A stretch of DNA of 18,836 bases from Candidatus Hodarchaeota archaeon. Its GTDB lineage: Archaea; Asgardarchaeota; Heimdallarchaeia; Hodarchaeales; Hodarchaeaceae. A program made the position numbers and the translations under genes. The notes beneath the pieces were generated by a model, which was not told where the DNA came from, searched no databases, and saw only the letters and a list, made by a program, of their open reading frames with translations. Shown here piece after piece: positions 2,444 through 14,463 of this stretch. The stretch is from NCBI GenBank assembly GCA_029856365.1, contig JAHQWW010000075.1, forward strand, positions 1-18,836, in the 5' to 3' direction. Every line of letters starts with the position of its first letter. The stretch's first letter is position 1.

Positions 2444-3637
2444 TTAAAACCCCTTAAGAGGAGATAAGAATGATCCTGCAGATCTCTCTGTTAGCGGAAT
2501 CATAGAGTCACATTCTTTTATCAAAACATCTTTGTCAGTAATAAACCTTCCAAGCTTTTTTGCTTGAAGCTTTATTGCACTTATTACATTATCTTCAATT
2601 TCCTCAAATAAAAACAGCTTTATTAACGATTCATTTTCTTGAAAAACGTCCCAAACTCCAATTATTCTCCCATTGAGCAAGATTGATGATGTAGCATTAC
2701 CAGAGCGATCAAAAACATAATTATAACGCTTAATCTTGATATATCTTTCACGTTCTTTGTATCCCATGACATACGGGTCTAGAGCTGGCATTAAATTAAC
2801 TATTTGCCTTTTAGAACTCCGAACAGTGTCTATCAGATCTTTATCAGAGGCTAACATAAGAAGATCCTTATTAAGATCTAGAATTTTGACTTGTAAGATT
2901 TGATCTTGAATGTGATTCAATGCCTTTGTTACCTTTGTTCTGTTTAATCCAGTCCACCATATTGCATCCTTTTCAGAAATAGGGCCAAATGTGGCTAAAT
3001 AGTATTGAACTAGCTGATTTATAGCTTGTTGCTCACTAAATTGAGAGAAATCTATATTAGGGAAAAACGCATTGAAAAGAGAATATTTTCGAGGTCTAGT
3101 TCTTATTAATAATGCTTGGTCACACATCAAATACAGAATGAACGAGATAGATTTAAAAGTCGTTTGTAGAGCATTTTTTATCTCTGAAGCACTCATTTCT
3201 TCTTTATTATCTTTTAAGATACTAAGAATTGATTCTGAAAGCACTTTATATCTATCAAAAGAGATCCCTCGGAATTCCAAAGCTTTTATAGATTGTGTTT
3301 CAACCATTTTGCTTGTTGCCACATAAACTACTGGGATTATTTCTTTAGGGAAAATAAAGAGAGTTCTTCGGATACAGCGAATTTTCCCAAGATTTTTTTT
3401 GATGAACAGCTCTTCATCTAGATCCTTTTTTATGAAATTAGGCATTCGAGCAAACAAAGATATATATGGAACCTTGGTACTGGTGGCGTGTAACCCCCCA
3501 ATCTCCTTTACTATTTTCCCAATATCTTTAGTTCTTGTTTCATCTACTAAATGCTGTTTGTATAAGATTAACCGATTGATTTCATTTAATGTAATATCTA
3601 TCATGTTATCATCAATTAGAATCTCTTTACTTTTCAC
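2444..3637 (-). CDS. AlkZ/YcaQ-like (HTH_42) winged-helix DNA glycosylase family protein
   Basis: Has GGLHAT...PYISLFARM, RCIRRTLFI, YLATFGPISEKDAIWWTGL, LMPALDPYVMGYKER and ILLNGRIIGVW, matching the family layout. GTG start, exact position uncertain (an ATG about 11 codons downstream is an alternative). Confidence 0.88.
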   Translation of the reverse strand: MKSKEILIDDNMIDITLNEINRLILYKQHLVDETRTKDIGKIVKEIGGLHATSTKVPYISLFARMPNFIKKDLDEELFIKKNLGKIRCIRRTLFIFPKEIIPVVYVATSKMVETQSIKALEFRGISFDRYKVLSESILSILKDNKEEMSASEIKNALQTTFKSISFILYLMCDQALLIRTRPRKYSLFNAFFPNIDFSQFSEQQAINQLVQYYLATFGPISEKDAIWWTGLNRTKVTKALNHIQDQILQVKILDLNKDLLMLASDKDLIDTVRSSKRQIVNLMPALDPYVMGYKERERYIKIKRYNYVFDRSGNATSSILLNGRIIGVWDVFQENESLIKLFLFEEIEDNVISAIKLQAKKLGRFITDKDVLIKECDSMIPLTERSAGSFLSPLKGF

Positions 3638-3684: not shown

Positions 3685-4641
3685 TCAAATATTCGATATT
3701 TTTACATTTCTTTGCTTCAAAAAATCCATTACTTCCTTCATCGTGGGCAATGACATTGCTCCTTGTTTCATAATTTTTAACGCTGACACGGCATTGGCAA
3801 AATAAGGGATATCGTACATATCTAGCTTCAAAAGAAGTCCCGTGATCATACCCGCAGCAAAGGCATCACCTGCACCTGTTGTATCTACAACAGGAACTTT
3901 AAACGAAGGTGCAAAAAAGCTCTCTTCTTTAGTTATGATTCTTGAACCTTGTTCTCCTGAAGTTAATCCTATCATGTCAGGGCCAATTTCAAAAATGGCT
4001 TCTAGCGCTTTTTCTCCTTTTTTTCCTGTAATAAATTCCGCTTCACTCAAAGATGGGATAAAAATATCTGTCTTTTCTAATACTTCAAGTAAATGTTCTC
4101 GGGGATCTAGGTGATGCCACAGATCATCTCGGAGATTTGGATCACACGCAACTAATACATTGTTTTGCTTTGCAATATGAATGGTCTTTTTTATTGCAGA
4201 TCTGGCTGGTTCATCCGCCATCGAGACAGTTCCATACATCAAAACTTTACTAGACTTTATATACTCTGTATTAATTTCTGACTCTTTTAACATAATATCT
4301 GCACATGGGGATCGATAGAATGAAAAAGAAGGCTTTTTTGATTCATCTAGACCTACAAACGCTAGAGCAGTCTTATATTCATTAGTTATAATTATTTGAC
4401 TGACATCGACCCCTTCTTTCTCTAAAGCTTCAAGTAAGAAGCGTCCGAAAAAGTCATCTCCGACTTTTGTAATTAAACCAGCTTCATGACCTAATTTTCT
4501 TACTCCAACAATAAAATTAGCTGGAGCTCCTCCAGCAAACCGCTTAAAAGTGGTTTGATCCTCCATACGTGTTCCAGGATTATCCGCGATTAGATCAATC
4601 AAGAGTTCGCCTATAGCTATTACATCAAGCATGGTAGACAT
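3685..4641 (-). CDS. PfkB/ribokinase-family carbohydrate kinase (fructokinase-like)
   Basis: Has GELLID, AGGAPAN, KVGDDFFG, DPNLR and the PfkB signature VDTTGAGDAFAAG. Start is likely the ATG at 4641 or 4632 rather than 4716, since family similarity begins at MLDVIAIGE. Confidence 0.95.
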   Translation of the reverse strand: MSTMLDVIAIGELLIDLIADNPGTRMEDQTTFKRFAGGAPANFIVGVRKLGHEAGLITKVGDDFFGRFLLEALEKEGVDVSQIIITNEYKTALAFVGLDESKKPSFSFYRSPCADIMLKESEINTEYIKSSKVLMYGTVSMADEPARSAIKKTIHIAKQNNVLVACDPNLRDDLWHHLDPREHLLEVLEKTDIFIPSLSEAEFITGKKGEKALEAIFEIGPDMIGLTSGEQGSRIITKEESFFAPSFKVPVVDTTGAGDAFAAGMITGLLLKLDMYDIPYFANAVSALKIMKQGAMSLPTMKEVMDFLKQRNVKISNI

Positions 4642-4870
4642 AACCAATCCTACTGACAAGACATACCATCGTGATAGCATTACTTTAATCTTTATTATTT
4701 CCGATGGAAAATTCATTTATAATTTATAATAGTGATTATTTGTAATCTGAAATAAGTACAGATATACAGGTGAACAAATAACCAAACAATTAAGAAAATT
4801 AGATGACTTTGATCTTAATGTTTATGAGTCAGGAATGAAGATTTTAATCATAAAAAAAGACAATATTGGT

Positions 4871-5014
4871 ATGAAATCAAAGAGGAAAATCACAGAACCA
4901 AGAAATGGGACAGAATCAGAAGGTAGAAGGGAAATCCCTCCAATAAATGTCCATCTACTCGTTCTAACGCTCATCCTGTCCCTCATCTTTTTGCTAGCAA
5001 TATTAGTCTTTTGA
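4871..5014 (+). pseudogene. Truncated, diverged duplicate of the 5' end of the 5260..6402 gene (47-aa ORF with one hydrophobic helix)
   Basis: Translates to MKSKRKITEPRNGTESEGRREIPPINVHLLVLTLILSLIFLLAILVF*, which aligns without gaps to (W)ESMKKSTEPKNKTQTEGRTEITPIIVHPLALALILSLIFSLGGLF. DNA similarity is visible, e.g. cgctcatcctgtccctcatcttt vs cgctcattctgtcactcatcttt. Confidence 0.8.
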
Positions 5015-5259
5015 GAGGAATTTGTATTTTCATTTCCGAGAAATTATGATTATCACAACCAATGGGGAAAACACTGGAACCTTAACACAAGGATTGAAGC
5101 CTTCCTGACCAAACAGTTGCAAAAAGACTGATTCTCATTCCTGCTGATGTTGTAGAGAATTCTTTTAATCGTTCTTTGACATTTTTGGTAGAAAAACTAC
5201 TTTTTCTAAGATAATCTTTTATGTGCGTATGAAGCGTTAGTAGAAGTAAGATCTTCTCT

Positions 5260-6402
5260 ATGGGTTGGACATGGGAATCAATGAAGAAAAGTACTGAACC
5301 AAAAAATAAGACACAAACTGAAGGAAGAACGGAAATCACTCCAATTATTGTTCATCCACTCGCTCTAGCGCTCATTCTGTCACTCATCTTTTCGCTAGGG
5401 GGATTATTTTTGATGGTAACAGTCCCTGAGGAATTAAATCGCTTTTTAGAAAATTACATCGCTGATCCGTGGTATGCTCCAAGTGAGGAAGGCGTCCAAG
5501 TACGGGCACAATATGAGTCAGTGGTAGCTTTTCTTAGACCTATAGCATACCTTTCGTTCTGGTTAATGATTATAACGATAATAGTTGGAGTACTCATTAA
5601 GCGGTACAAGCTGAGCTTTTTAGGATCCTTGACCTTCTACCTTCCGATTTTTGGTCAATTTGCTACAATGATGGGCCCTTTCTTTATTTTTGCAGGCATT
5701 GGGGTGTCACGAACTCTTTGGGTACCTATTCTGGATCACGTCCCCAAACTCTTGAATCTAGGCGCCATATTTTACTTCCCACTGGTGGTGATATTTTTTC
5801 TGATTGATCTTCTTCTTGCACTCTTAATATTTTCGCTGCGGGAACCTCTTTTACAACCACTACTAGGAGAAGAAATGGCAATATCAATTACGCATTTGTT
5901 GAATTTTATGATTGTTTTTTTTATTGCTGGAATAGGTATTTTCATTTTCACGTTTGCAGTGGTGACGTGGTTATATGGACGATTTCAAGGTCGGAAGGTC
6001 ATAGATTTTTGGATTTATCGCTATTCAAGGCATCCCCAATATATGGGGCTGATTATTTGGAACTATGGCCTGTTAATGTTATCAACAATTTCTCATATTG
6101 GCCTCTTCCCCCCCACGTTCCCTTTCCTTGTATTGTCTTTGGTAATCATTGGGATGGCTCTGAATGAAGAGAATACGATGATTCGACAACATACTGAGGA
6201 ATATATTACGTGGCGAGAGCGAACACCATTCCTATTTCCTTTACCCCGAAGAATCAGATCATTTATTACGTATCCTATGAGAAAGTTGATAAAGAAGGAG
6301 TGGCCGGAAAGTAACAAAGATATTATCCAGGTCTTACTGATTTATGGTTCTATTGTGGTATTGATGTCGGTTCCCCTTGTGAATTATGTCTTCTGGCAAT
6401 GA
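5260..6402 (+). CDS. Multi-pass membrane protein, isoprenylcysteine carboxyl methyltransferase / PEMT / DUF1295 superfamily
   Basis: Has many hydrophobic segments, the signature IYRYSRHPQYMG, then NEE and EEYITWRERTPFLFP. Start may be 5260 or 5281. Confidence 0.85.
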   Translation: MGWTWESMKKSTEPKNKTQTEGRTEITPIIVHPLALALILSLIFSLGGLFLMVTVPEELNRFLENYIADPWYAPSEEGVQVRAQYESVVAFLRPIAYLSFWLMIITIIVGVLIKRYKLSFLGSLTFYLPIFGQFATMMGPFFIFAGIGVSRTLWVPILDHVPKLLNLGAIFYFPLVVIFFLIDLLLALLIFSLREPLLQPLLGEEMAISITHLLNFMIVFFIAGIGIFIFTFAVVTWLYGRFQGRKVIDFWIYRYSRHPQYMGLIIWNYGLLMLSTISHIGLFPPTFPFLVLSLVIIGMALNEENTMIRQHTEEYITWRERTPFLFPLPRRIRSFITYPMRKLIKKEWPESNKDIIQVLLIYGSIVVLMSVPLVNYVFWQ

Positions 6403-6441
6403 AAACTTACTTCATCTTTCTTCTCTTCGACAATCGCAAAC

Positions 6442-9400
6442 TTATACCGATTTTCCCCGAGGCCATAGATCTTGGATGATTTCTTTCAGAACTCCAACGA
6501 GGCGACTGTCCGTTGTAATAATCAATTGAACCCCAATATCGTCGGAACCGATCGCAGCTTCTTCCGTACCATCTCTTGCAAAAGCATAGATTTCCACGTT
6601 TTCATAGTGTTTTAATTGGACATTTCCTAGCTCTTGAGTAATCTTTCTAGCCGTTTCCTGGGAATCAACATTAGTAAGAATCTGTATTCGTCGTCGAGTT
6701 CCTGCTTGTTCAAGTACATCCCAAGGAATCATCGATAGTTTAGGCACCATTATTTGAATGGTACTCTTCGTCCGACTTAACATTGCTTGGAGTGTCTGCA
6801 TGACCCTATCAACAGGTTGCAAATAAGTCTCCTCTACACTGGCTATTGGCACTTCCATTGCTTGTTTCTGGATCTCTGAGATTAGTGACATTAATTTTTT
6901 ACTTTTAGAAAGTCCTGATCCAAGTTTAGCGGGAATTTTACCAATAATTTGTGAAAGATCACTTGAAATTGTGTCCTGTGTTTGTGTTGCTTTTTTATCA
7001 ACTTCTGAAGTAAGATTCAACACATCATACTCTAATACTTTAGAGACATTGTCACTTTTTGATTCGAAGAAGGAGTATGTTTCTGTAAGTATAGAATCAA
7101 TGTCATCATAATATGAACTACTTCCTTCAGTAATTATATTCTGAATCTCTGTGATGCTTTCTTGGATGTTATTGGAAATGACTTCCACATTATCGGAAAT
7201 TATTTGACCAAAAGTGTTTGAAAAACTAGTAAGATTTTGATCTACTTCTTTGAATAATATCTGATGACGATCTGTAGCAGTATTTTTCTCTATTTCCAAA
7301 GCATTTATACTATTAGTGACTCTGTCATCCAAGAAATCACTGCTTTGGTTTAGAAGTGTATCATGACGGCTATTCAAAGTCGAAATAAAATTCTGAGCAG
7401 TTGCTACAAATGCTTCAAGAGAAGCTTGAAATTCTTGATATAGACGGTTCACTTTTTGACTTAATTGAATCTTACCAGAGTTTATATCAGTTTCTATTTT
7501 TATAATAATATCTTGGACATTAGTACTAAATATTTCGATGGCTTGATGAATCTCCTTCTCTATTTGAGCCCTTTTATGTGGTATTTTTTTATCTAATTCA
7601 GTAATTTTTGATTTTAAACTGTTTATTTCGCTTTGTAATCCAGTATAAATTTTTTCAATTTGATCTTTGAACTCTCCTCTCTCAGAGGAAGCTTGTTGTT
7701 CGACTGTCTTGAGATGATTTAAGCTAGAGGACTTTAAGTTGTCAATAATTTCTTTAGAATTGCTGTATTGCCCTTCAATATCTTTTAGCAATTGAGTTGA
7801 AATTTCTTCAATCCTAGTTGGAAGAGAACGAATATCTTGCAGCTTATCATTTGCGTTCGCTAGAGTCTTCGAGGATATTTCCTTTATCGACTCATTAGTG
7901 GTTTGAGTAATAGTTTTTATAGAATCTTGAAGTTTTTCATTTATTTCCTTAAGAGTTGAAATGATTACCGTACCATTATCCTCCAATTTAGTTGGAATTT
8001 CTTGAAATTTCTCTTTTTGAGATAAATTCAACACCTGGATATTCGTATCTATAATCGTCTTTAAGTCGTCTTGAGCTTCTTCTAGGGCTTTAATCAAATT
8101 CTGTAAGTTACTACTTGTCGATTCTAGGAAAGTATTTGATTGTTTATCCAGTTCTTCATTAAGTTGAGAAAGAATGGAACTTCCCTTTTGAGAAGCCAAT
8201 TTCCAATGAGTAGACATAATTTCTTTGAAATTAGAAAGATCAGATTGAGATTTGAGCCTATTAAAGGTTTTGTCTATCTCAGAAATTATAGATTCGTTAA
8301 TTACTTCCGCGATTCGTGCTCCTCCAGATTCACTTGCAGATTGAAAAGCAAGTTGAAGGTTCTGGATAAAATTTTCCACTTCAACATTAAGAATTGCTTC
8401 AAGTTCTCTTGGCGCTTGAGCTGTCTGATCTAATTGCACAATAGAGTTATTTAGCTTGTTAAATTCATTGATTAGACTTTGTTTAAGACTTTCATCAAGA
8501 GAGGTAGAAATCGTCGAGAGAAGAAGCCCTAGCTGGTCAATAAGATTCGCTTTTCGTGTGTTATATCTCTCTTTTATTCTGTCTGAAAATTCCGTGATAT
8601 TCTTCAGTGCCAGTTCATATGATGAATTGATAGATTTTGTAAGGTCTTCCTTGATAGTGTCCATTAAACGTTGGATCTCTAAATTTTGAGTATTCAAACT
8701 TGAGTTTATTGTTTCTGCAAAGGATTCACTAGATGCGTTAAGATTATGAATTTGGTCATCAATAAGTCTTTCTGTCCGTTTTTGAGCGCTATCAAATTCT
8801 TTCATTGCTGAGGTTACAATTTTTTCGATATCTTGAAATCCTCCTTTCCCTAGACTAACTCTCTTACTTAATCTTTCAGTGACCTCGGAATTAATTTCAG
8901 TCAAACGATTTCTTATCTTGTTAAGTTCTGCCTTTACAGCCCGATCGAAGGTGTTAAAATCATCAGTATGCCGTGCTTGGTATTCTTCAAGTTGAGTGGG
9001 AATATTCCGACTGAGTTCTAAGGTTGATTTCTCAATTTTTTCAGAGAGAGCTTTTAGTCGCTCCTTTGAAGTAATGATTTGTTCTTTCTGTTCGTTTTCT
9101 GCCTTTTCACTGACTTCTGTGACATCCACGGCAAGATTAGCAATATCTTGATCAAAAGTTTCGGAAATTGTTTGATTGCCAGCTTCTATATTCATTTTAA
9201 ATTGGTCAAGAATCCTTGAAATCTCTGCCTGAGTATTCATCGAGATTTGGTTTAAATCCTCTGACACACTACTAATGACATTAAAATTCTGAGTGATTTC
9301 TTCTGTTCTTGCACCTACATTTTCTACAAGCATTGACTGCATTTGACCAAGTATCATATTTGCTGAAGTCCCAAAGGAAGAGAATTCCTCATTCGCCACA

Positions 9401-11043
9401 TTTCGAAGATATTGTAAAGATTCAGAAAGTTTACTGCTTCTTTCGGAAAGTAATTCCTTCATTTTCAAGTTTAATTCGTCTACACTCGTTGTCATATCAA
9501 CTAGATTTAATTCAGAATCCTCATCGAAATTCTTTTCAATATCAGAGACCTGTTGTATCATTTCCAAGAAAGAATTGGAAGTTTGCTCTATTAATGGTTG
9601 AATCTGCTGTTCTAGATCTTGTATTACTTTATTAATTGTCTTTGAGCCTTCTTGAATGATAGTAGTTCTATTGCCTTCTAAAAGGGAAAAAATGTCTGTT
9701 TCTAATTTTAGCAACTCTTCTATTCCATTACTGTATTGGGCTTGAATAAATATTTCTAATTTTTCAAATAACTGAGAAATATCGATACTTAATTTTTCTT
9801 GGAAAGAAGATACATGTGCGGTTACATCAGTGTTTATACCCATCAGTCCTTCGGTCTGAATCGATTCAAATCCCTCTGATCCTTTAACTAATTCCTCTTT
9901 GGTATTCATTAATACTTCAGTTAAAGCTGATGTTATGTTTTCAGAGTTTAGTTTCTCTTTTGCTTCATCAAACTTATTTGTTGTTTCGATAATTGACTGT
10001 AACATTTCTGTCAAGTTTTTCCAAAGATTTTCATTAATCTTATTCGCTGAATCAATGACCGAAAAAGAACTCTTGGATGTTCGCTCACTGAAATCTTGAA
10101 CCATCTCGTGGATAGATTTTAACGATTCTTCCCCTAAATCAATGAGATTCATCTGGATTTTTTCAATTTGTTGGTTAATAATGGTCAACTTATCAGAAAC
10201 TTTCTTAGTTATTTCTTCTCCGATTGAATTAAGATCATCCTGACTTGAGAGTTTATTTTGCTCAATATTTCTGCTTGTTTGTTCGTTGATAGTTGAAAGG
10301 GTTGAATTTAAGTTCTCTGTAGTGTTTGTAACTTGATGCTGAAGTGTTTGTATTGATTGTCTCATTTGGGAAAAAAGACTATTCAAACTTTCGATTCTTT
10401 CTGAATAGATTTCAGTTATTCTTTCAAGGTGTTGTTTTCTTTCTTCTATCCGAGACTCCTTGATATTTTTCAGATTTACTTCAAGCATAGCAATATTTTT
10501 ATGGACTTCTGTTTCTAAATTGCTAGAAAATTCGGTGATCACATTCTCTAATTTTTTAGAATTCACTTGATTTTGATTTGAAACTTGATTTTTGATCTGT
10601 CGCAGAATTTCAGTAGTTTTGGTCTTTATTTGCTCCATATAAGCCCGAATATGAGATTGAAATTCTTTTTCAGATTTTGAGACTAATTCTGGCCCCTTTT
10701 GAATATCATTTACTATATTAATTAATTCTTTTTGCCCTTCTTCCCATTTATTTTTGATTTCTTCCTTAATTTGGTTTAATTCACTTTCTACTTGCCGATC
10801 AATTTCACTAGTTACTGCGATTGCTGGAGCTAATGCGATGTACTGAGGCACTTTCCCTGGGATCACTCTTATGAATTTTTTCTTTTCTAATCCATCTAAA
10901 GCACTTTGAATAGCTTCAAGAGCTAGATCACTAGCTAATATCATAATTTCTTCGACTGTTCGCACTGATTTAGAAACAATAATAGTGTAGACTTGGCCCT
11001 CTTCTGTTGTGAACCCTAATTGATTATACAAGTCTGTCGACAT
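6442..11043 (-). CDS. 1533-aa protein: N-terminal TrmB-like winged helix-turn-helix, about 1,320-aa alpha-helical/coiled-coil rod, C-terminal TrmB effector/PLD-like domain
   Basis: aa ~1-75 (LGFTTEEGQVYTII...IQSALDGLEKKKFIRVIPGKVPQYIALAP) fits the TrmB wHTH pattern. The middle is E/Q/S/K/I/L-rich with very few Pro and no Cys. aa ~1410-1533 (LQAMLSRTKSTIQIMVP...IQILTNVD...YAFARDGTEEAAIG...LIITTDSRLVGVLKEIIQDLW) fits a PLD-like fold without HxK. No Walker A/B motif is seen. Confidence 0.8.
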   Translation of the reverse strand: MSTDLYNQLGFTTEEGQVYTIIVSKSVRTVEEIMILASDLALEAIQSALDGLEKKKFIRVIPGKVPQYIALAPAIAVTSEIDRQVESELNQIKEEIKNKWEEGQKELINIVNDIQKGPELVSKSEKEFQSHIRAYMEQIKTKTTEILRQIKNQVSNQNQVNSKKLENVITEFSSNLETEVHKNIAMLEVNLKNIKESRIEERKQHLERITEIYSERIESLNSLFSQMRQSIQTLQHQVTNTTENLNSTLSTINEQTSRNIEQNKLSSQDDLNSIGEEITKKVSDKLTIINQQIEKIQMNLIDLGEESLKSIHEMVQDFSERTSKSSFSVIDSANKINENLWKNLTEMLQSIIETTNKFDEAKEKLNSENITSALTEVLMNTKEELVKGSEGFESIQTEGLMGINTDVTAHVSSFQEKLSIDISQLFEKLEIFIQAQYSNGIEELLKLETDIFSLLEGNRTTIIQEGSKTINKVIQDLEQQIQPLIEQTSNSFLEMIQQVSDIEKNFDEDSELNLVDMTTSVDELNLKMKELLSERSSKLSESLQYLRNVANEEFSSFGTSANMILGQMQSMLVENVGARTEEITQNFNVISSVSEDLNQISMNTQAEISRILDQFKMNIEAGNQTISETFDQDIANLAVDVTEVSEKAENEQKEQIITSKERLKALSEKIEKSTLELSRNIPTQLEEYQARHTDDFNTFDRAVKAELNKIRNRLTEINSEVTERLSKRVSLGKGGFQDIEKIVTSAMKEFDSAQKRTERLIDDQIHNLNASSESFAETINSSLNTQNLEIQRLMDTIKEDLTKSINSSYELALKNITEFSDRIKERYNTRKANLIDQLGLLLSTISTSLDESLKQSLINEFNKLNNSIVQLDQTAQAPRELEAILNVEVENFIQNLQLAFQSASESGGARIAEVINESIISEIDKTFNRLKSQSDLSNFKEIMSTHWKLASQKGSSILSQLNEELDKQSNTFLESTSSNLQNLIKALEEAQDDLKTIIDTNIQVLNLSQKEKFQEIPTKLEDNGTVIISTLKEINEKLQDSIKTITQTTNESIKEISSKTLANANDKLQDIRSLPTRIEEISTQLLKDIEGQYSNSKEIIDNLKSSSLNHLKTVEQQASSERGEFKDQIEKIYTGLQSEINSLKSKITELDKKIPHKRAQIEKEIHQAIEIFSTNVQDIIIKIETDINSGKIQLSQKVNRLYQEFQASLEAFVATAQNFISTLNSRHDTLLNQSSDFLDDRVTNSINALEIEKNTATDRHQILFKEVDQNLTSFSNTFGQIISDNVEVISNNIQESITEIQNIITEGSSSYYDDIDSILTETYSFFESKSDNVSKVLEYDVLNLTSEVDKKATQTQDTISSDLSQIIGKIPAKLGSGLSKSKKLMSLISEIQKQAMEVPIASVEETYLQPVDRVMQTLQAMLSRTKSTIQIMVPKLSMIPWDVLEQAGTRRRIQILTNVDSQETARKITQELGNVQLKHYENVEIYAFARDGTEEAAIGSDDIGVQLIITTDSRLVGVLKEIIQDLWPRGKSV

Positions 11044-11189
11044 AATTATCCCTTACTTTAGTCTCATTCTGTGTCAATCAAACCCAAAGATGGAAAATTT
11101 TATTTGTGATGTCAAAATTAAAATAATCTCAAATAGTTTTACGCGAACTTGTAAATTTATAATAACTCTGAAATTAATTATTTTGAATT
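11044..11189. promoter_or_regulatory. Divergent intergenic promoter region with a TATA-like box on the + strand
   Basis: 146-bp AT-rich gap between head-to-head genes. TTTATAAT at 11156-11163 lies about 27 nt upstream of the GTG at 11190, the spacing expected for a leaderless archaeal transcript. Confidence 0.5.
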
Positions 11190-12647
11190 GTGATAAAGCT
11201 GCAGAACGATAAACTTGCTGAAAGTATGATTCAACAACGGCAATATCAAAAGATAATACTTTCTAAACTTAAAGAAAACTTCCTACAGGGTCATAACACG
11301 GTCGTTGAGGTAGATACAGGATTGGGGAAACGTGTTCTAGCATTTCTTCTAATAAAAGATGTCCTCTCGGAACAAAGAGTTCTTCTACTCCTACACTCTA
11401 CAATTAGTTACTCTGAAACAATTCATTACTTTAAAGTGGAGTACGGTGGTTTTCGTGAATCAGAATTTCAAGCTTTTTCTTCTAAAACTTCAGGGTGGCT
11501 TAGATACAAAATTCTTGATGAAGCACGAGTGGTTGCTGCAACCCCCCAAACATTTGCAAATGCCTTTAATAAACTCCCCCAATCTAAAAAGCCAAAATTT
11601 AATGTAGTAATAATTAACGAAATAGACAAAATTGTTCGACGTCATGGAGATTCCCGTTTATTGATTTTTCCTTACAATAATCTCATTCCACATTTTGCAT
11701 ATTCTGGTGCATGGATTGTAGGAATGACGGGAACAATTCGAGACTCTCACATTCTTTATAATCAATCAAAAGATCAAATTGAGATTCAACCTGAAATTGT
11801 TTCACTTGATAAACGTATTCCTGAACTTCACATCATTCGGATGGATACACTTCTAGCACAAACTGATATTAAAAACTATATCCAGAATACTTATATTCAG
11901 CGATATCATGTGAAGGCGAGTCCTGAATTACAAACAATTTTGGATTTGATAGATCAGGGCATTAAAGACTTACGACAATTAATTATTGATGAGACTATGG
12001 AACAACATCCGACTCTTCTTGAAACAATTCCCTCGTCTCAAGTCGCACTAGTTTCTGGAATGTTAGAATCAGGTAACACTCAGAAGTATCAAGGCTTATT
12101 ACTAATACGAAAATATTGTACTGCAATGCAACCAAAAAAATTTCGAAAATTCCTCTTTCGCCTAAAGAAATTCGGGATAACCAAGGATCTCATTTATGAT
12201 TTACCTGAATATAACGCTAAGATTGACAAAGTACTCGAGCTTATTAAAAAACAACCCCAGAATTCTAAAACAGTTGTTTTATGTTCATTTCTTGATACAG
12301 CTCAAAAGCTCGAAGATGAAATTCAACAAATTGGGGTCACAACTTTTCAAGTGACTGGACAAGTTCGAAATAAGATCTCTGTACTTAACAAGTTTAAGGA
12401 AATAGAGGAAAAAGCCGTACTTGTGATGACTGCTGTGGGTGAAAGAGATATTGACCTCCCACAGGCTAATCTATTAATCGTCTATGACGTTGTCAATACT
12501 GTAAAAACGATGTATCAAAGGTTTAAAAGGACTCGTGGTGGTTTAGTCTTATGTTTATGTTATAAAAAAACCTTTGAAGAGCAAAAAGTCAATCGATTGC
12601 TTCAAGAGATTAGTAAACGCTATCCATGGTCTTCAATAATAGAATGA
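11190..12647 (+). CDS. SF2 helicase-like protein, Hef/Mph1/FANCM-like, with divergent motifs and no ERCC4 nuclease domain
   Basis: Has Q-motif RQYQ, motif I VDTGLGKR, Ib VVAATPQTFAN, II IINEID, III GMTGT, IV VVLCSFLDTA, V VMTAVGERDIDLP and VI YQRFKRTRGG, with a helical insert between the RecA lobes. Confidence 0.85.
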   Translation: MIKLQNDKLAESMIQQRQYQKIILSKLKENFLQGHNTVVEVDTGLGKRVLAFLLIKDVLSEQRVLLLLHSTISYSETIHYFKVEYGGFRESEFQAFSSKTSGWLRYKILDEARVVAATPQTFANAFNKLPQSKKPKFNVVIINEIDKIVRRHGDSRLLIFPYNNLIPHFAYSGAWIVGMTGTIRDSHILYNQSKDQIEIQPEIVSLDKRIPELHIIRMDTLLAQTDIKNYIQNTYIQRYHVKASPELQTILDLIDQGIKDLRQLIIDETMEQHPTLLETIPSSQVALVSGMLESGNTQKYQGLLLIRKYCTAMQPKKFRKFLFRLKKFGITKDLIYDLPEYNAKIDKVLELIKKQPQNSKTVVLCSFLDTAQKLEDEIQQIGVTTFQVTGQVRNKISVLNKFKEIEEKAVLVMTAVGERDIDLPQANLLIVYDVVNTVKTMYQRFKRTRGGLVLCLCYKKTFEEQKVNRLLQEISKRYPWSSIIE

Positions 12648-12689
12648 AATCTTTCAATGCACCATGTTCGTTTTTTCAAAATTAATTCA

Positions 12690-13385
12690 CTAAAGAAAGG
12701 GGATAAATCCTCCACCAAAAAAGCCAACAACTAATAAGCAACCTATTAATGAAATCCATATTTTTGGATCCCATGCGAGTACTTTTGCTCCATCTAAAAC
12801 GCCTATGGGAAGAAGATTAAACACCCCTAGAAAAACATTCAACCAAACACCAACAATTCCAATAAAATTTAATGCTAAGCCTAATGAAATCATGCTGCTG
12901 TCAAGAATTAACAAAACACCAACTCCTTGGAGGGAAAGGAATAATCCTGCAAGTATAAAATTAGTTATTGGCCCAGAAGCAGAAACTCTACCACGAATTC
13001 CCTGAGAAGCAGTGGCTTCACCCCACCAAAACACAGCTCCTGTTGCAAGAATCGGAAAACCAATTATAACACTAATTAATGTTAGAAATAGTGCTTCCTT
13101 ACTAAGCCTGTAGTAAGCTCTTGCACCATACTTGATGGCAATAAATTTGTGAGATAATTCATGGGCAAAAAAACTTACGCCTAAGACGAACAGATAGATC
13201 AGCAGTTCATCTGGTATTTTTCCTTCTTGAATGACATCGCCAAGAGTTCCTGTTAGGTAGAGAATTACGAAACTTGTAATTAACCACCCAATTCCTAGTT
13301 CAGATATTTCTTGAACAGATAGATGGAGTCTATCAAGAATAGTTTTTTTAGTGAAATCACTTTTCCAATCAGGTTTTTGATCCAT
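12690..13385 (-). CDS. Site-2 protease (peptidase M50) intramembrane zinc metalloprotease
   Basis: Has HELSH (HExxH) within a hydrophobic segment, SASGPITN and FNLLPIGVLDG (NxxPxxxLDG). Confidence 0.95.
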   Translation of the reverse strand: MDQKPDWKSDFTKKTILDRLHLSVQEISELGIGWLITSFVILYLTGTLGDVIQEGKIPDELLIYLFVLGVSFFAHELSHKFIAIKYGARAYYRLSKEALFLTLISVIIGFPILATGAVFWWGEATASQGIRGRVSASGPITNFILAGLFLSLQGVGVLLILDSSMISLGLALNFIGIVGVWLNVFLGVFNLLPIGVLDGAKVLAWDPKIWISLIGCLLVVGFFGGGFIPFL

Positions 13386-13802
13386 TCATACCTCCTCCTT
13401 GCACGTATGACTACCAGGAAGATAATGTGATCCACAGAGGATCTGTCCACATCTCGCGCAATAAAATGGTTTATGAATCTTTTTCCCACAAGTGCTGCAA
13501 AAAGCAACTTCTGGAATTTCTGGTCTTTTCTGTACCTTATCAGGGTACACCTTTACCACTTTAAAGTTCGTTAAATCAGGGGAAGCCTCATACTCAGCTT
13601 GATATCCTTTTATCCTTTCTGGTGAAAATAAGAGAGCAATAAAAATCATTCCAGTAATTGTAGTAATTATTCCTAGCGTTAACAGTCTAAATGAAGGATG
13701 AATATAGAATATAAGGCTTGAAAGAAAAAAACCAAAACTAAGGACTGTTATAACACTAAATCCGATCAAATATTTTGAGTTGAGGTTCATATTAGTCATC
13801 AT
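13386..13802 (-). CDS. Membrane-anchored AN1-type zinc-finger protein
   Basis: Two N-terminal hydrophobic helices, then CSTCGKKIHKPFYCARCGQILCGSHYLPGSHTC (C-x2-C...C-x2-C-x4-C-x2-H-x5-H-x-C, the AN1 spacing). Confidence 0.88.
   Translation of the reverse strand: MMTNMNLNSKYLIGFSVITVLSFGFFLSSLIFYIHPSFRLLTLGIITTITGMIFIALLFSPERIKGYQAEYEASPDLTNFKVVKVYPDKVQKRPEIPEVAFCSTCGKKIHKPFYCARCGQILCGSHYLPGSHTCKEEV
13390..13400 (-). promoter_or_regulatory. Strong Shine-Dalgarno sequence for the S2P gene, embedded in the 3' end of the AN1 gene
   Basis: The minus strand reads AAGGAGGAGGTA-TGA-ATG: SD motif, stop codon of the upstream gene, then the next start codon immediately. Confidence 0.7.
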
Positions 13803-14463
13803 CTAAGTTTGGAAATAAGTCTAAGATTTCTGTCAATGATGAAATAACAATTATTTCAGGAAGAATTTGTTCAAAATCTTCTTTATGAAACATTCCCTTT
13901 CTTCCAATAAAATAGATATCATTCATTTTTGCTCTTTTAAGGTCATGTAATGAATCTCCAATAAAAATAATCTCGGAGCTAGAATAATTATATTTCGATT
14001 TAACAAATTTAAAATGATCCGTACCCTTTTCAAACCCAGGCCTCCACCCAAGTATATCATCGACCATATTCAATCCATGTTTCTTAAGATAATTAGTTAT
14101 TATTGATTCAATTGTACCACTAGATATTCCTAATTTATATCCACGTCGTTTCAGTTCTCGAAGTACCACGCAGGAATCTGCAAATAGCTGTTGTTCAAAG
14201 ATTCGCTCAAGTTTCATTTTTTCGAATTCAGTTACTATTTTACCATTATCTTTTTTAGGAGCTATAATTTCCATTTGTTGAATAAATGGAAGTCCTGTAG
14301 TTTCACGATAGCTTTTCTGAGCTTCTTCGGTAGAAAATCCATAGGAATTTGTTAGAAGATATACTGCATTATTCTCTAAAAATGGCATTGAATCTACAAT
14401 GGTTCCATCGAAATCGAACATGATATACTGAGTTTTACAAAGATTTACCAATTTTTTTTTCAT
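13792..14463 (-). CDS. HAD-superfamily hydrolase (phosphoglycolate-phosphatase-like)
   Basis: Has motif I FDFDGTIVDS, motif II GISSG, Lys in FEKG and motif IV FIGDSLHD. Confidence 0.93.
   Translation of the reverse strand: MKKKLVNLCKTQYIMFDFDGTIVDSMPFLENNAVYLLTNSYGFSTEEAQKSYRETTGLPFIQQMEIIAPKKDNGKIVTEFEKMKLERIFEQQLFADSCVVLRELKRRGYKLGISSGTIESIITNYLKKHGLNMVDDILGWRPGFEKGTDHFKFVKSKYNYSSSEIIFIGDSLHDLKRAKMNDIYFIGRKGMFHKEDFEQILPEIIVISSLTEILDLFPNLDDD

Follow-up and report, generated by a model that had tools for sequence, protein, structure and literature searches.

The locus and its product

The window analysed here is the whole stretch of 18,836 nucleotides that makes up contig JAHQWW010000075.1 (GenBank assembly GCA_029856365.1) of Candidatus Hodarchaeota archaeon. 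The gene of interest spans positions 6442..11043 on the minus strand and is an intact, unbroken open reading frame (ORF) for 1533 amino acids (aa) plus a stop codon. The encoded protein carries a TrmB-type winged helix-turn-helix (wHTH) at its N terminus and a domain resembling phospholipase D (PLD-like) at its C terminus. The ~1,250 residues between G117-P118 and P1371 appear as one long amphipathic rod that, judging from conservation patterns and structure prediction, almost certainly folds back on itself at a Gly-rich turn. TrmB-family proteins are typically ~260-360 aa long, and the compact size with a single short linker is not found here. The 1533-aa protein has no cysteine and no transmembrane segment, and its net charge is -79.

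A search of ~5.8 billion proteins recovered eight complete orthologs (1534-1538 aa, 43-79% identity) together with two partial ones. All derive from Asgard metagenome-assembled genomes named Heimdallarchaeota, Hodarchaeota or Promethearchaeota, and one ortholog is encoded on the closed chromosome CP070695.1. Because the architecture and the length recur in eight other assemblies, including CP070695.1, a chimeric assembly, which the original prediction had raised as a concern, is excluded. That prediction, made from the DNA letters alone, had also raised the possibility of an Asgard host, which is correct, and had expected that annotation pipelines may label such a protein as SMC-like or hypothetical. 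The orthologs are indeed named 'hypothetical protein' in the databases, and more distant members are also named 'helix-turn-helix domain-containing protein' or, in one case, 'sugar-specific transcriptional regulator TrmB'.

The two terminal domains

The first 78 residues (10810..11043, minus strand, as for all features of this gene given below) form a strongly conserved TrmB-type wHTH. When aa 1-120 were scanned alone, the Pfam TrmB family PF01978 matched aa 8-73 with an E-value of 1.7e-6 and 28.2 bits against a cut-off of 25.6; with the full-length protein the score was 23.9 bits, slightly under this cut-off. Relatives of like architecture score 35.7-48.6 bits for the same family. In addition, a profile of aa 1-130 from the nine orthologs matches the TrmBL2 structures 5bpd, 5box and 5bqt over query residues 4-110. 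This alignment pairs with TrmBL2 residues 9-109, which comprise the wHTH and the subsequent amphipathic helix. In our protein, the latter corresponds to aa 79-117 (10693..10809), a segment that is kept in all orthologs and ends at G117-P118. By this alignment, which extends to residue 110, the segment is the equivalent of the coiled-coil helix of TrmB and TrmBL2.

At the opposite end of the chain, aa 1405-1533 (6445..6831) constitute a predicted alpha/beta domain of the TrmB/TrmBL2 PLD-like type, and a conserved basic helix with an isoelectric point of 9.4 (aa 1372-1404; 6832..6930) leads into it. An AlphaFold2 (AF2) model of aa 1370-1533, derived from 28 family sequences, has a predicted local distance difference test score (pLDDT) of 81, with the basic helix occupying model residues 2-28. 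The best Foldseek matches of this model are to TrmBL2 (5bpi/5bpd, E 2e-9 to 1e-7), followed by TrmB and then by the PLD-fold proteins Zucchini, Nuc, NucT and PLD3/4. In the match to TrmBL2, the basic helix and the domain align jointly with the corresponding helix and domain. A second comparison with VIA, which runs all against representatives and is independent of Foldseek, places TrmB (2f5t) first, with Z 15.8 and a root-mean-square deviation (rmsd) of 2.1 over 125 aa aligned to TrmB 110-241. TrmBL2 follows with Z 13.9, and PLD-fold nucleases come next.

Sequence identity between this domain and TrmBL2 is 16-18%. A sequence profile of the C-terminal 164 residues found no match among PDB sequences (the top entry was TrwF, E 1.2), and Pfam PF11495 does not match the 1533-aa protein; the short relative P0024 alone matches it, weakly. 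There is no HxK motif in aa 1405-1533. The residues at the estimated HxK position are F1488-A-R1490, as placed by hand alignment to the PLD motif, and the family-wide signature of the domain consists of R1452, N1474 and R1490-D-x-x-E1494-E1495. Both ends of the protein are therefore of the kinds originally predicted, namely a TrmB-type wHTH and a PLD-like C terminus that lacks HxK. The protein ends after the PLD-like subdomain, and the second subdomain of TrmB proper, which binds sugar and comprises the residues after ~245, including G320/E326 (PMC4158304), is not present.

The helical rod

Hydrophobic residues in the middle of the protein recur with a period of 3.64 that is coherent across aa 120-1380 and has a spectral power of 12.3. 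For comparison, the maximum in 200 shuffles was 1.8, and the power at the heptad period of 3.5 was 0.05. The period is 3.62-3.68 in each of the nine orthologs and in the three paralogs that this genome encodes. Hydrophobic residues occupy about 3-4 of 11 angular positions. On the strength of this periodicity, the middle can be described as an amphipathic helix whose hydrophobic stripe runs almost straight, and which is hendecad-like and not a classical left-handed coiled coil. Such a stripe explains the formal match to the Apolipoprotein family PF01442 (95.8 bits, with a cut-off of 90, spread over eight stretches) and the PADLOC matches to ZorA tails, LmuB and similar proteins, which are confined to the rod. 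These matches seem to reflect shared amphipathic periodicity or composition and not homology.

The prediction that the middle is helical and free of ATPase motifs holds. There are no Walker A or Walker B motifs, and the Pfam families SMC_N, AAA_23 and Rad50 do not match. The helix is not strictly continuous as had been proposed, and its principal interruption is an invariant Gly-rich break, KRVSLGKGGF, at aa 727-736 (8836..8865). Lesser breaks occur near residues 555-558, 877 and 905-908. The main break divides the rod into an outgoing N arm (aa 118-726; 8866..10692) of 609 aa with a net charge of -41 and a returning C arm (aa 737-1371; 6931..8835) of 635 aa with a net charge of -35, giving -76 for the two arms combined.

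Three conserved islands stand out along the rod. The apex island (aa 677-770; 8734..9015) is near-invariant in 11 sequences and recognisable in relatives of 714 and 1091 aa. No other part of the rod is as conserved, and none but this one is charge-neutral (net 0). The loop at its tip presents K727, R728 and K733 together with V729, L731 and F736. Island 1 (aa 537-575; 9319..9435) contains the SSFG break at 555-558 and lies 158-196 residues ahead of the turn. Island 2 (aa 879-917; 8293..8409) is associated with breaks at P878 and G907-G908 and lies 146-184 residues past the turn.

Evidence for a fold-back at the midpoint

If the two arms pack against each other, their conservation should be symmetric about the turn. 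Per-column conservation among the nine orthologs was smoothed, and the values on each side were correlated with the reversed values of the other side for 1000 trial centres. The best of these centres is residue 732 (r 0.68), which is the first Gly of KRVSLGKGGF. Leaving out 60 or 100 central residues on each side gave a centre of 731.5, with r values of 0.58 and 0.62, respectively. The eight related genomes that encode orthologs of this genome's 802-aa paralog (40-82% identity; a group of nine orthologs) provide a replicate, in which the mirror centre is residue 358 with r 0.65-0.70 and is stable when the centre is excluded.

Shorter relatives are consistent with this symmetry. Compared with the 1533-aa protein, the 1091-aa relative P0014 carries deletions of 206 residues in the N arm and 203 in the C arm, and the 714-aa relative P0013 from Thorarchaeota has lost 401 and 405 residues, respectively. 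Both retain the turn motif, in the forms GKSGF and GKSGL. Whichever of the three length classes is considered (714, 1091 or 1533 aa), the turn lies 6-8 residues ahead of the midpoint between the wHTH and the C-terminal domain. Islands 1 and 2 are both kept in P0014 at their respective distances from the turn. Since these distances nearly match, the two islands would face each other in a hairpin. Length is otherwise tightly constrained, with only four indel columns in the ~1,250 rod residues of the nine orthologs, and the orthologs of the 802-aa paralog have no rod deletion relative to the copy in this genome.

Structure prediction yields the same arrangement. An AF2 model of aa 520-945 from 13 sequences (pLDDT 75; predicted template modelling score, pTM, 0.36) has two helices, 559-726 and 733-875, with a loop at 727-732 between them. 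With VIA, this model superposes on the Maxi antifreeze protein 4ke2 (196 of 196 residues, rmsd 2.7, model residues 112-308) and on the chemoreceptor 2ch7 (302 residues, model residues 50-373), as well as on the chemoreceptor 3g67 and on arm fragments of SMC proteins and of Rad50, with 343 residues superposed for Rad50. The hairpin superpositions are symmetric about loop 727-732. In Foldseek, the list of weak matches is dominated by hairpins of Rad50, Smc5/6, MukB and the dynein stalk.

Taken together, the sequence symmetry and the monomer model indicate that the rod almost certainly folds back at aa 727-736, so that the N and C arms run antiparallel. An antiparallel fold-back that brings N and C termini together, as in SMC, Rad50 and MukB, would thereby be present in this protein as well. 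The original prediction had the DNA-binding head and the effector domain separated by ~1,320 residues of rod. This part is not supported, because a fold-back at the midpoint would place both domains at the same end.

Distribution and length classes of the family

A search with the C-terminal domain against 1.84 billion representative proteins returned 38 proteins at E <= 1e-3, most of which are 700-1800 aa long and have the domain at the extreme C terminus. The family members that were scanned combine a helical middle with an N-terminal TrmB wHTH (E 1e-9 to 1e-13). All members with an organism name are Asgard, including representatives of Thor-, Frey-, Odin-, Hermod-, Heimdall-, Hod- and Promethearchaeota. 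The wider family also includes stand-alone proteins of ~150-210 aa that consist of the C-terminal domain.

Individual genomes encode several of these proteins. There are four paralogs in the genome studied here, of 1533, 1393, 802 and 760 aa. Two closed Heimdallarchaeota chromosomes (CP070695.1 and CP070760.1) each carry a long form and a form of 727-728 aa, which in CP070695.1 are 1535 aa and 728 aa in length. The short forms (locus L039, G009:C1:3187107-3189251, in CP070695.1 and locus L036 in CP070760.1) share the turn and apex of the long form and are 33-37% identical to aa 1-281, 633-864 and 1257-1533 of the 1533-aa protein. By these alignments, one cell contains two rod lengths with a single type of tip.

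Genomic context

Divergent from the rod gene and 146 bp away lies a superfamily 2 (SF2) helicase-like gene (window 11190-12647, plus strand) that encodes 485 aa with ResIII and Helicase_C domains. Of 21 related genomes, 17 carry this gene (35-85% identity), and the divergent pairing recurs at loci L005, L006 and L009 within broadly conserved synteny. The helicase was considered as an obligate partner and rejected, because it also occurs in genomes G001-G003, in which no copy of the 1533-aa gene was found and the family members are located elsewhere. Autoregulation was likewise considered and rejected. The 146-bp region is conserved solely between close relatives, and it has no palindrome in common with the relative at 43% identity or with the 1091-aa relative.

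Other neighbours recur around the gene. A tightly packed trio encoding a HAD hydrolase, a membrane protein with an AN1 zinc finger and an M50 site-2 protease occupies window 12690-14463 (minus strand). The same trio occurs at L006:1892-3684 and L009:2736-4475, and its order is the same in relatives at 43% identity and on the contig of the 1091-aa relative. An AlkZ-like DNA glycosylase gene is located near the rod gene in the window (2444-3637, minus strand) and at L005:12662-13801, where it lies directly downstream of the rod gene of a relative with 63% identity. Genes for small GTPases of the Arf/Ras/Roc type are found within a few kilobases of three family members (L011:1-1323, L016:5941-6495 and L027:9894-10948), in one case together with a Roadblock/LC7 gene. 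This proximity may simply reflect the abundance of such GTPases in Asgard genomes.

The genes for four distant members of 1257-1812 aa from Heimdall-, Frey- and Promethearchaeota each occupy the third position in a compact operon whose genes share one strand (L010:2765-9774, L011:1962-11439, L012:1644-11160 and L013:3049-10353). In each operon, a gene for a STAND-like AAA_16 ATPase (568-587 aa) comes first and is followed by one for a helical 'apolipoprotein-like' protein of 408-770 aa, with gaps of 2-22 nucleotides between the genes. No such ATPase operon occurs in the orthogroup of the 1533-aa gene, and the contexts of the sister group of 714-717 aa have no partner gene in common.

The 802-aa paralog resides at an SMC/ScpB locus (L015, G000:C18:75485-93927; gene at 8940-11348, minus strand). 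Its neighbours, all on the plus strand, are genes for SMC (3968-7558), a 282-aa ORF (7595-8443), ScpB (11555-12121) and a ScpB-like protein (12131-13324), and the paralog is divergent from the two ScpB genes. Pfam does not recognise the 282-aa ORF that follows SMC as ScpA. The position beside SMC and divergent from the ScpB pair is shared by this genome and by G001, G002, G009 and G010 (41-73% identity). It is absent in G013, G016 and G020, which belong to other families and have the genes on different contigs. A link to condensin is therefore not upheld beyond the genus, and the adjacency is a genus-level association that gives a weak hint of a connection with chromosome organisation. Directly downstream of the 802-aa paralog, a 138-aa ORF (G000:C18:84020-84313, minus strand; L015:8458-8874, minus strand) appears as a lone copy of the PLD-like domain and is 82% identical to aa 700-802 of that paralog.

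Comparison with known systems

The closest counterparts of the terminal regions are found in TrmBL2 (5bpd, 5box, 5bpi and 5bqt), which likewise begins with a TrmB-type wHTH and an adjoining amphipathic helix and ends in a PLD-like domain without the sugar-binding subdomain. TrmBL2, however, has 264 aa and one short linker helix, whereas the linker of the protein described here is interrupted by ~1,250 residues of fold-back helix. The TrmB sugar sensors (2f5t and 3qph) provide the best fold match of the C-terminal domain and share the wHTH family, although they differ greatly in size and architecture and have the second subdomain that our protein lacks.

With SMC, Rad50 and MukB, the rod protein would share a globular, DNA-directed head built from both ends of the chain, an extended antiparallel arm with discontinuities that mirror each other, and a conserved apex. 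The weak fold matches to Rad50, Smc5/6 and MukB arms are in line with this likeness. Unlike these proteins, it lacks an ABC ATPase head and a hinge domain, the absence of Cys leaves it without a CxxC zinc hook, and its period is 3.64 and not 3.5. In place of an SMC hinge or zinc hook, the apex of the rod is a short Gly-rich loop between conserved helices.

Two further hairpins resemble the turn region. The cytoplasmic hairpin of methyl-accepting chemotaxis proteins (MCP) has a highly conserved tip and symmetric arm indels, as seen here, and 2ch7 superposes on the model. In contrast, the rod protein has an arm ~3 times longer that stands on a TrmB head, and it lacks both a membrane module and a HAMP module. 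The family MCPsignal is not among the Pfam matches at E <= 1, and the chemoreceptor likeness is structural only. Maxi, a type I antifreeze protein that forms a helical hairpin of 11-residue repeats, gives the closest rigid superposition of the turn region (4ke2). With 7% identity this likeness is geometric only, and Maxi is a fish protein of unrelated function and origin. The terminal domains thus belong to the known TrmB/TrmBL2 family, whereas the overall architecture is undescribed in the searchable literature, in which we found no published account of such TrmB-headed rod proteins.

Proposed architecture and function

We propose that the ancestor of this protein was of the TrmBL2 type, with a wHTH, one amphipathic helix and a PLD-like domain, and that its linker helix expanded by ~1,250 residues. 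The insertion would lie within the linker helix, because the alignments give the helix after the wHTH and the helix before the C-terminal domain the same counterpart in TrmBL2, namely its single linker helix. The expanded helix would reverse at KRVSLGKGGF, such that the arm of residues 118-726 packs antiparallel on the arm of residues 737-1371 and reaches a length of up to ~90 nm if straight (609 residues x 0.15 nm). Its far end would carry the conserved, charge-neutral tip, and the mirrored pair of partly broken islands would be located ~25 nm from the tip.

The head would be assembled where the two chain ends meet at the base of the arm. It would comprise the wHTH (1-78), the helix at 79-117, the helix at 1372-1404 that follows P1371, and the PLD-like domain (1405-1533). 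In the TrmB dimer, the linker helices form a zipper through the residue pairs 81/91' and 84/88', and the DNA-binding domains are swapped (PMC4158304). We read these zipper pairs as antiparallel. By analogy, the head would resemble half a TrmB dimer, with a single wHTH, a pair of packed helices and a single effector domain. A complex prediction for aa 1-330 with aa 1150-1533 gave a score of 0.23 relative to a mark of 0.32, a result that counts neither for nor against such a head.

An architecture in which a TrmBL2-like head sits on a fold-back arm of fixed length is very probable given the sequence symmetry and the models. Functional assignment is more tentative. By analogy with TrmBL2, the head would hold DNA or chromatin, while the tip would bind a partner, which may be another tip, a membrane or a protein. 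Because the arm is acidic and its length is almost free of indels, the protein might serve as a fixed-length strut, tether or spacer, a role that we regard as plausible though still short of probable. Its acidity, its rigid length and the existence of discrete length classes with one tip, two of which occur together on CP070695.1, fit a spacer or tether in which the tip does the work. A structural role as tether or ruler is most likely, rather than conventional regulation. Taken as a whole, the reading of a TrmB-type head on a ~90-nm fold-back arm that acts as a fixed-length tether is moderately well favoured.

Several observations weigh against this proposal. The Tyr50-Asp51 pair is required for DNA recognition by TrmB (PMC4158304), and it aligns with Gln46-Ser47 here. 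The recognition pair is therefore not kept, and the corresponding column varies among orthologs, with Q or K followed by S, N, D, E, T or G. Furthermore, the wHTH has a net charge of -2. Because of the replaced pair, the variable column and this charge, DNA binding by the head is doubtful. A conserved palindromic operator was sought upstream of the gene and not found. TrmBL2 is a non-specific chromatin protein of Thermococcales, and DNA binding is for this reason the default reading for the head, uncertain as it is. With regard to the arm, the apex model has a pTM of 0.36, and Foldseek found no match to the aa 520-945 model at E <= 0.001. A partner for the tip was not identified, and the conserved helicase neighbour occurs without the rod gene too. 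Finally, an extended antiparallel homodimer would likewise produce mirror symmetry and balanced indels.

In such a homodimer, each chain would be one helix of ~185 nm paired head-to-tail with its partner, and each end would combine the wHTH of one chain with the PLD-like domain of the other, so that the complex could bridge DNA sites ~185 nm apart. Precedent comes from TrmB itself, whose helix zipper (81/91', 84/88') can be read as antiparallel and whose dimer is domain-swapped (PMC4158304). An unbroken helix would have no need of a GKGG sequence, however, and the hairpin is favoured because an invariant, helix-breaking turn is situated at the exact centre of symmetry and because the AF2 monomer model forms a hairpin at this very point. 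We consequently judge the homodimer to be quite improbable. A transcription regulator with a long sensor arm is an unlikely possibility. In this reading, the tip would sense a partner or signal, and altered helix packing would then propagate along the arm and modify how the head binds DNA. In its favour, TrmB-family proteins are regulators (PMC4158304), and the conserved tip and the superpositions on 2ch7 and 3g67 recall the cytoplasmic hairpins of chemoreceptors. Faithful signalling over 90 nm is implausible, though, and the sensor proposal also has to contend with the missing MCPsignal match, the lost recognition Tyr and the lack of a conserved upstream operator. Moreover, discrete length classes (714, 1091 and 1533 aa) that share one tip suit a ruler better than a sensor.

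The rod could also be imagined as a cytoskeletal or filament-forming protein rich in coiled coils, similar to intermediate filaments or crescentin, in which rods bundle laterally and the ends serve assembly and not DNA. A long helical rod without an ATPase and the presence of several paralogs per genome would be compatible with this role, and there are links between SMC-like or coiled-coil-rich proteins and cell shape in archaea and bacteria (PMC10869688). Yet the rod charge of -76 disfavours lateral bundling, strict hairpin symmetry and a conserved tip are foreign to intermediate-filament-like proteins, and the ends are clearly of the TrmB type, which makes a filament very unlikely. The PF01442 match in eight stretches, in combination with a period near 11/3 that is typical of helices on lipid surfaces, might instead point to an amphipathic helix of the apolipoprotein or perilipin type that lies flat on lipid. 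No peak for an 11- or 22-residue repeat stands out in the spectrum, however, and we read the match as one of amphipathic periodicity. With ~8 prolines in the rod, the Pro-punctuated 22-mers of the PF01442 repeat are missing as well. The rod is also acidic, and mirror-symmetric pairing of the arms accounts for the hydrophobic stripe without lipid. We therefore consider a lipid coat to be highly improbable, and prefer a TrmB-type head on a fold-back tether.

Implications for Asgard biology

A more speculative extension is that Asgard archaea use ATP-independent, TrmBL2-headed fold-back rods as molecular rulers that set the distance of chromatin from a membrane, a cytoskeletal element or another rod bound at the tip. 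The discrete length classes with one tip would then correspond to arms of ~36, 65 and 90 nm for the proteins of 714, 1091 and 1533 aa, respectively, although we consider both the ruler function and this use of the length classes to be rather unlikely at present. Should the head not bind DNA, the family would still represent a transcription-factor scaffold that was recruited to a structural role. A DNA-anchored ruler or tether would offer a concrete and testable component for the question of how chromatin, membrane and cytoskeleton are connected in Asgard archaea. If the ruler hypothesis is true, such proteins would be a prokaryotic forerunner of the structural link between genome and envelope, in the lineage that is closest to eukaryotes.

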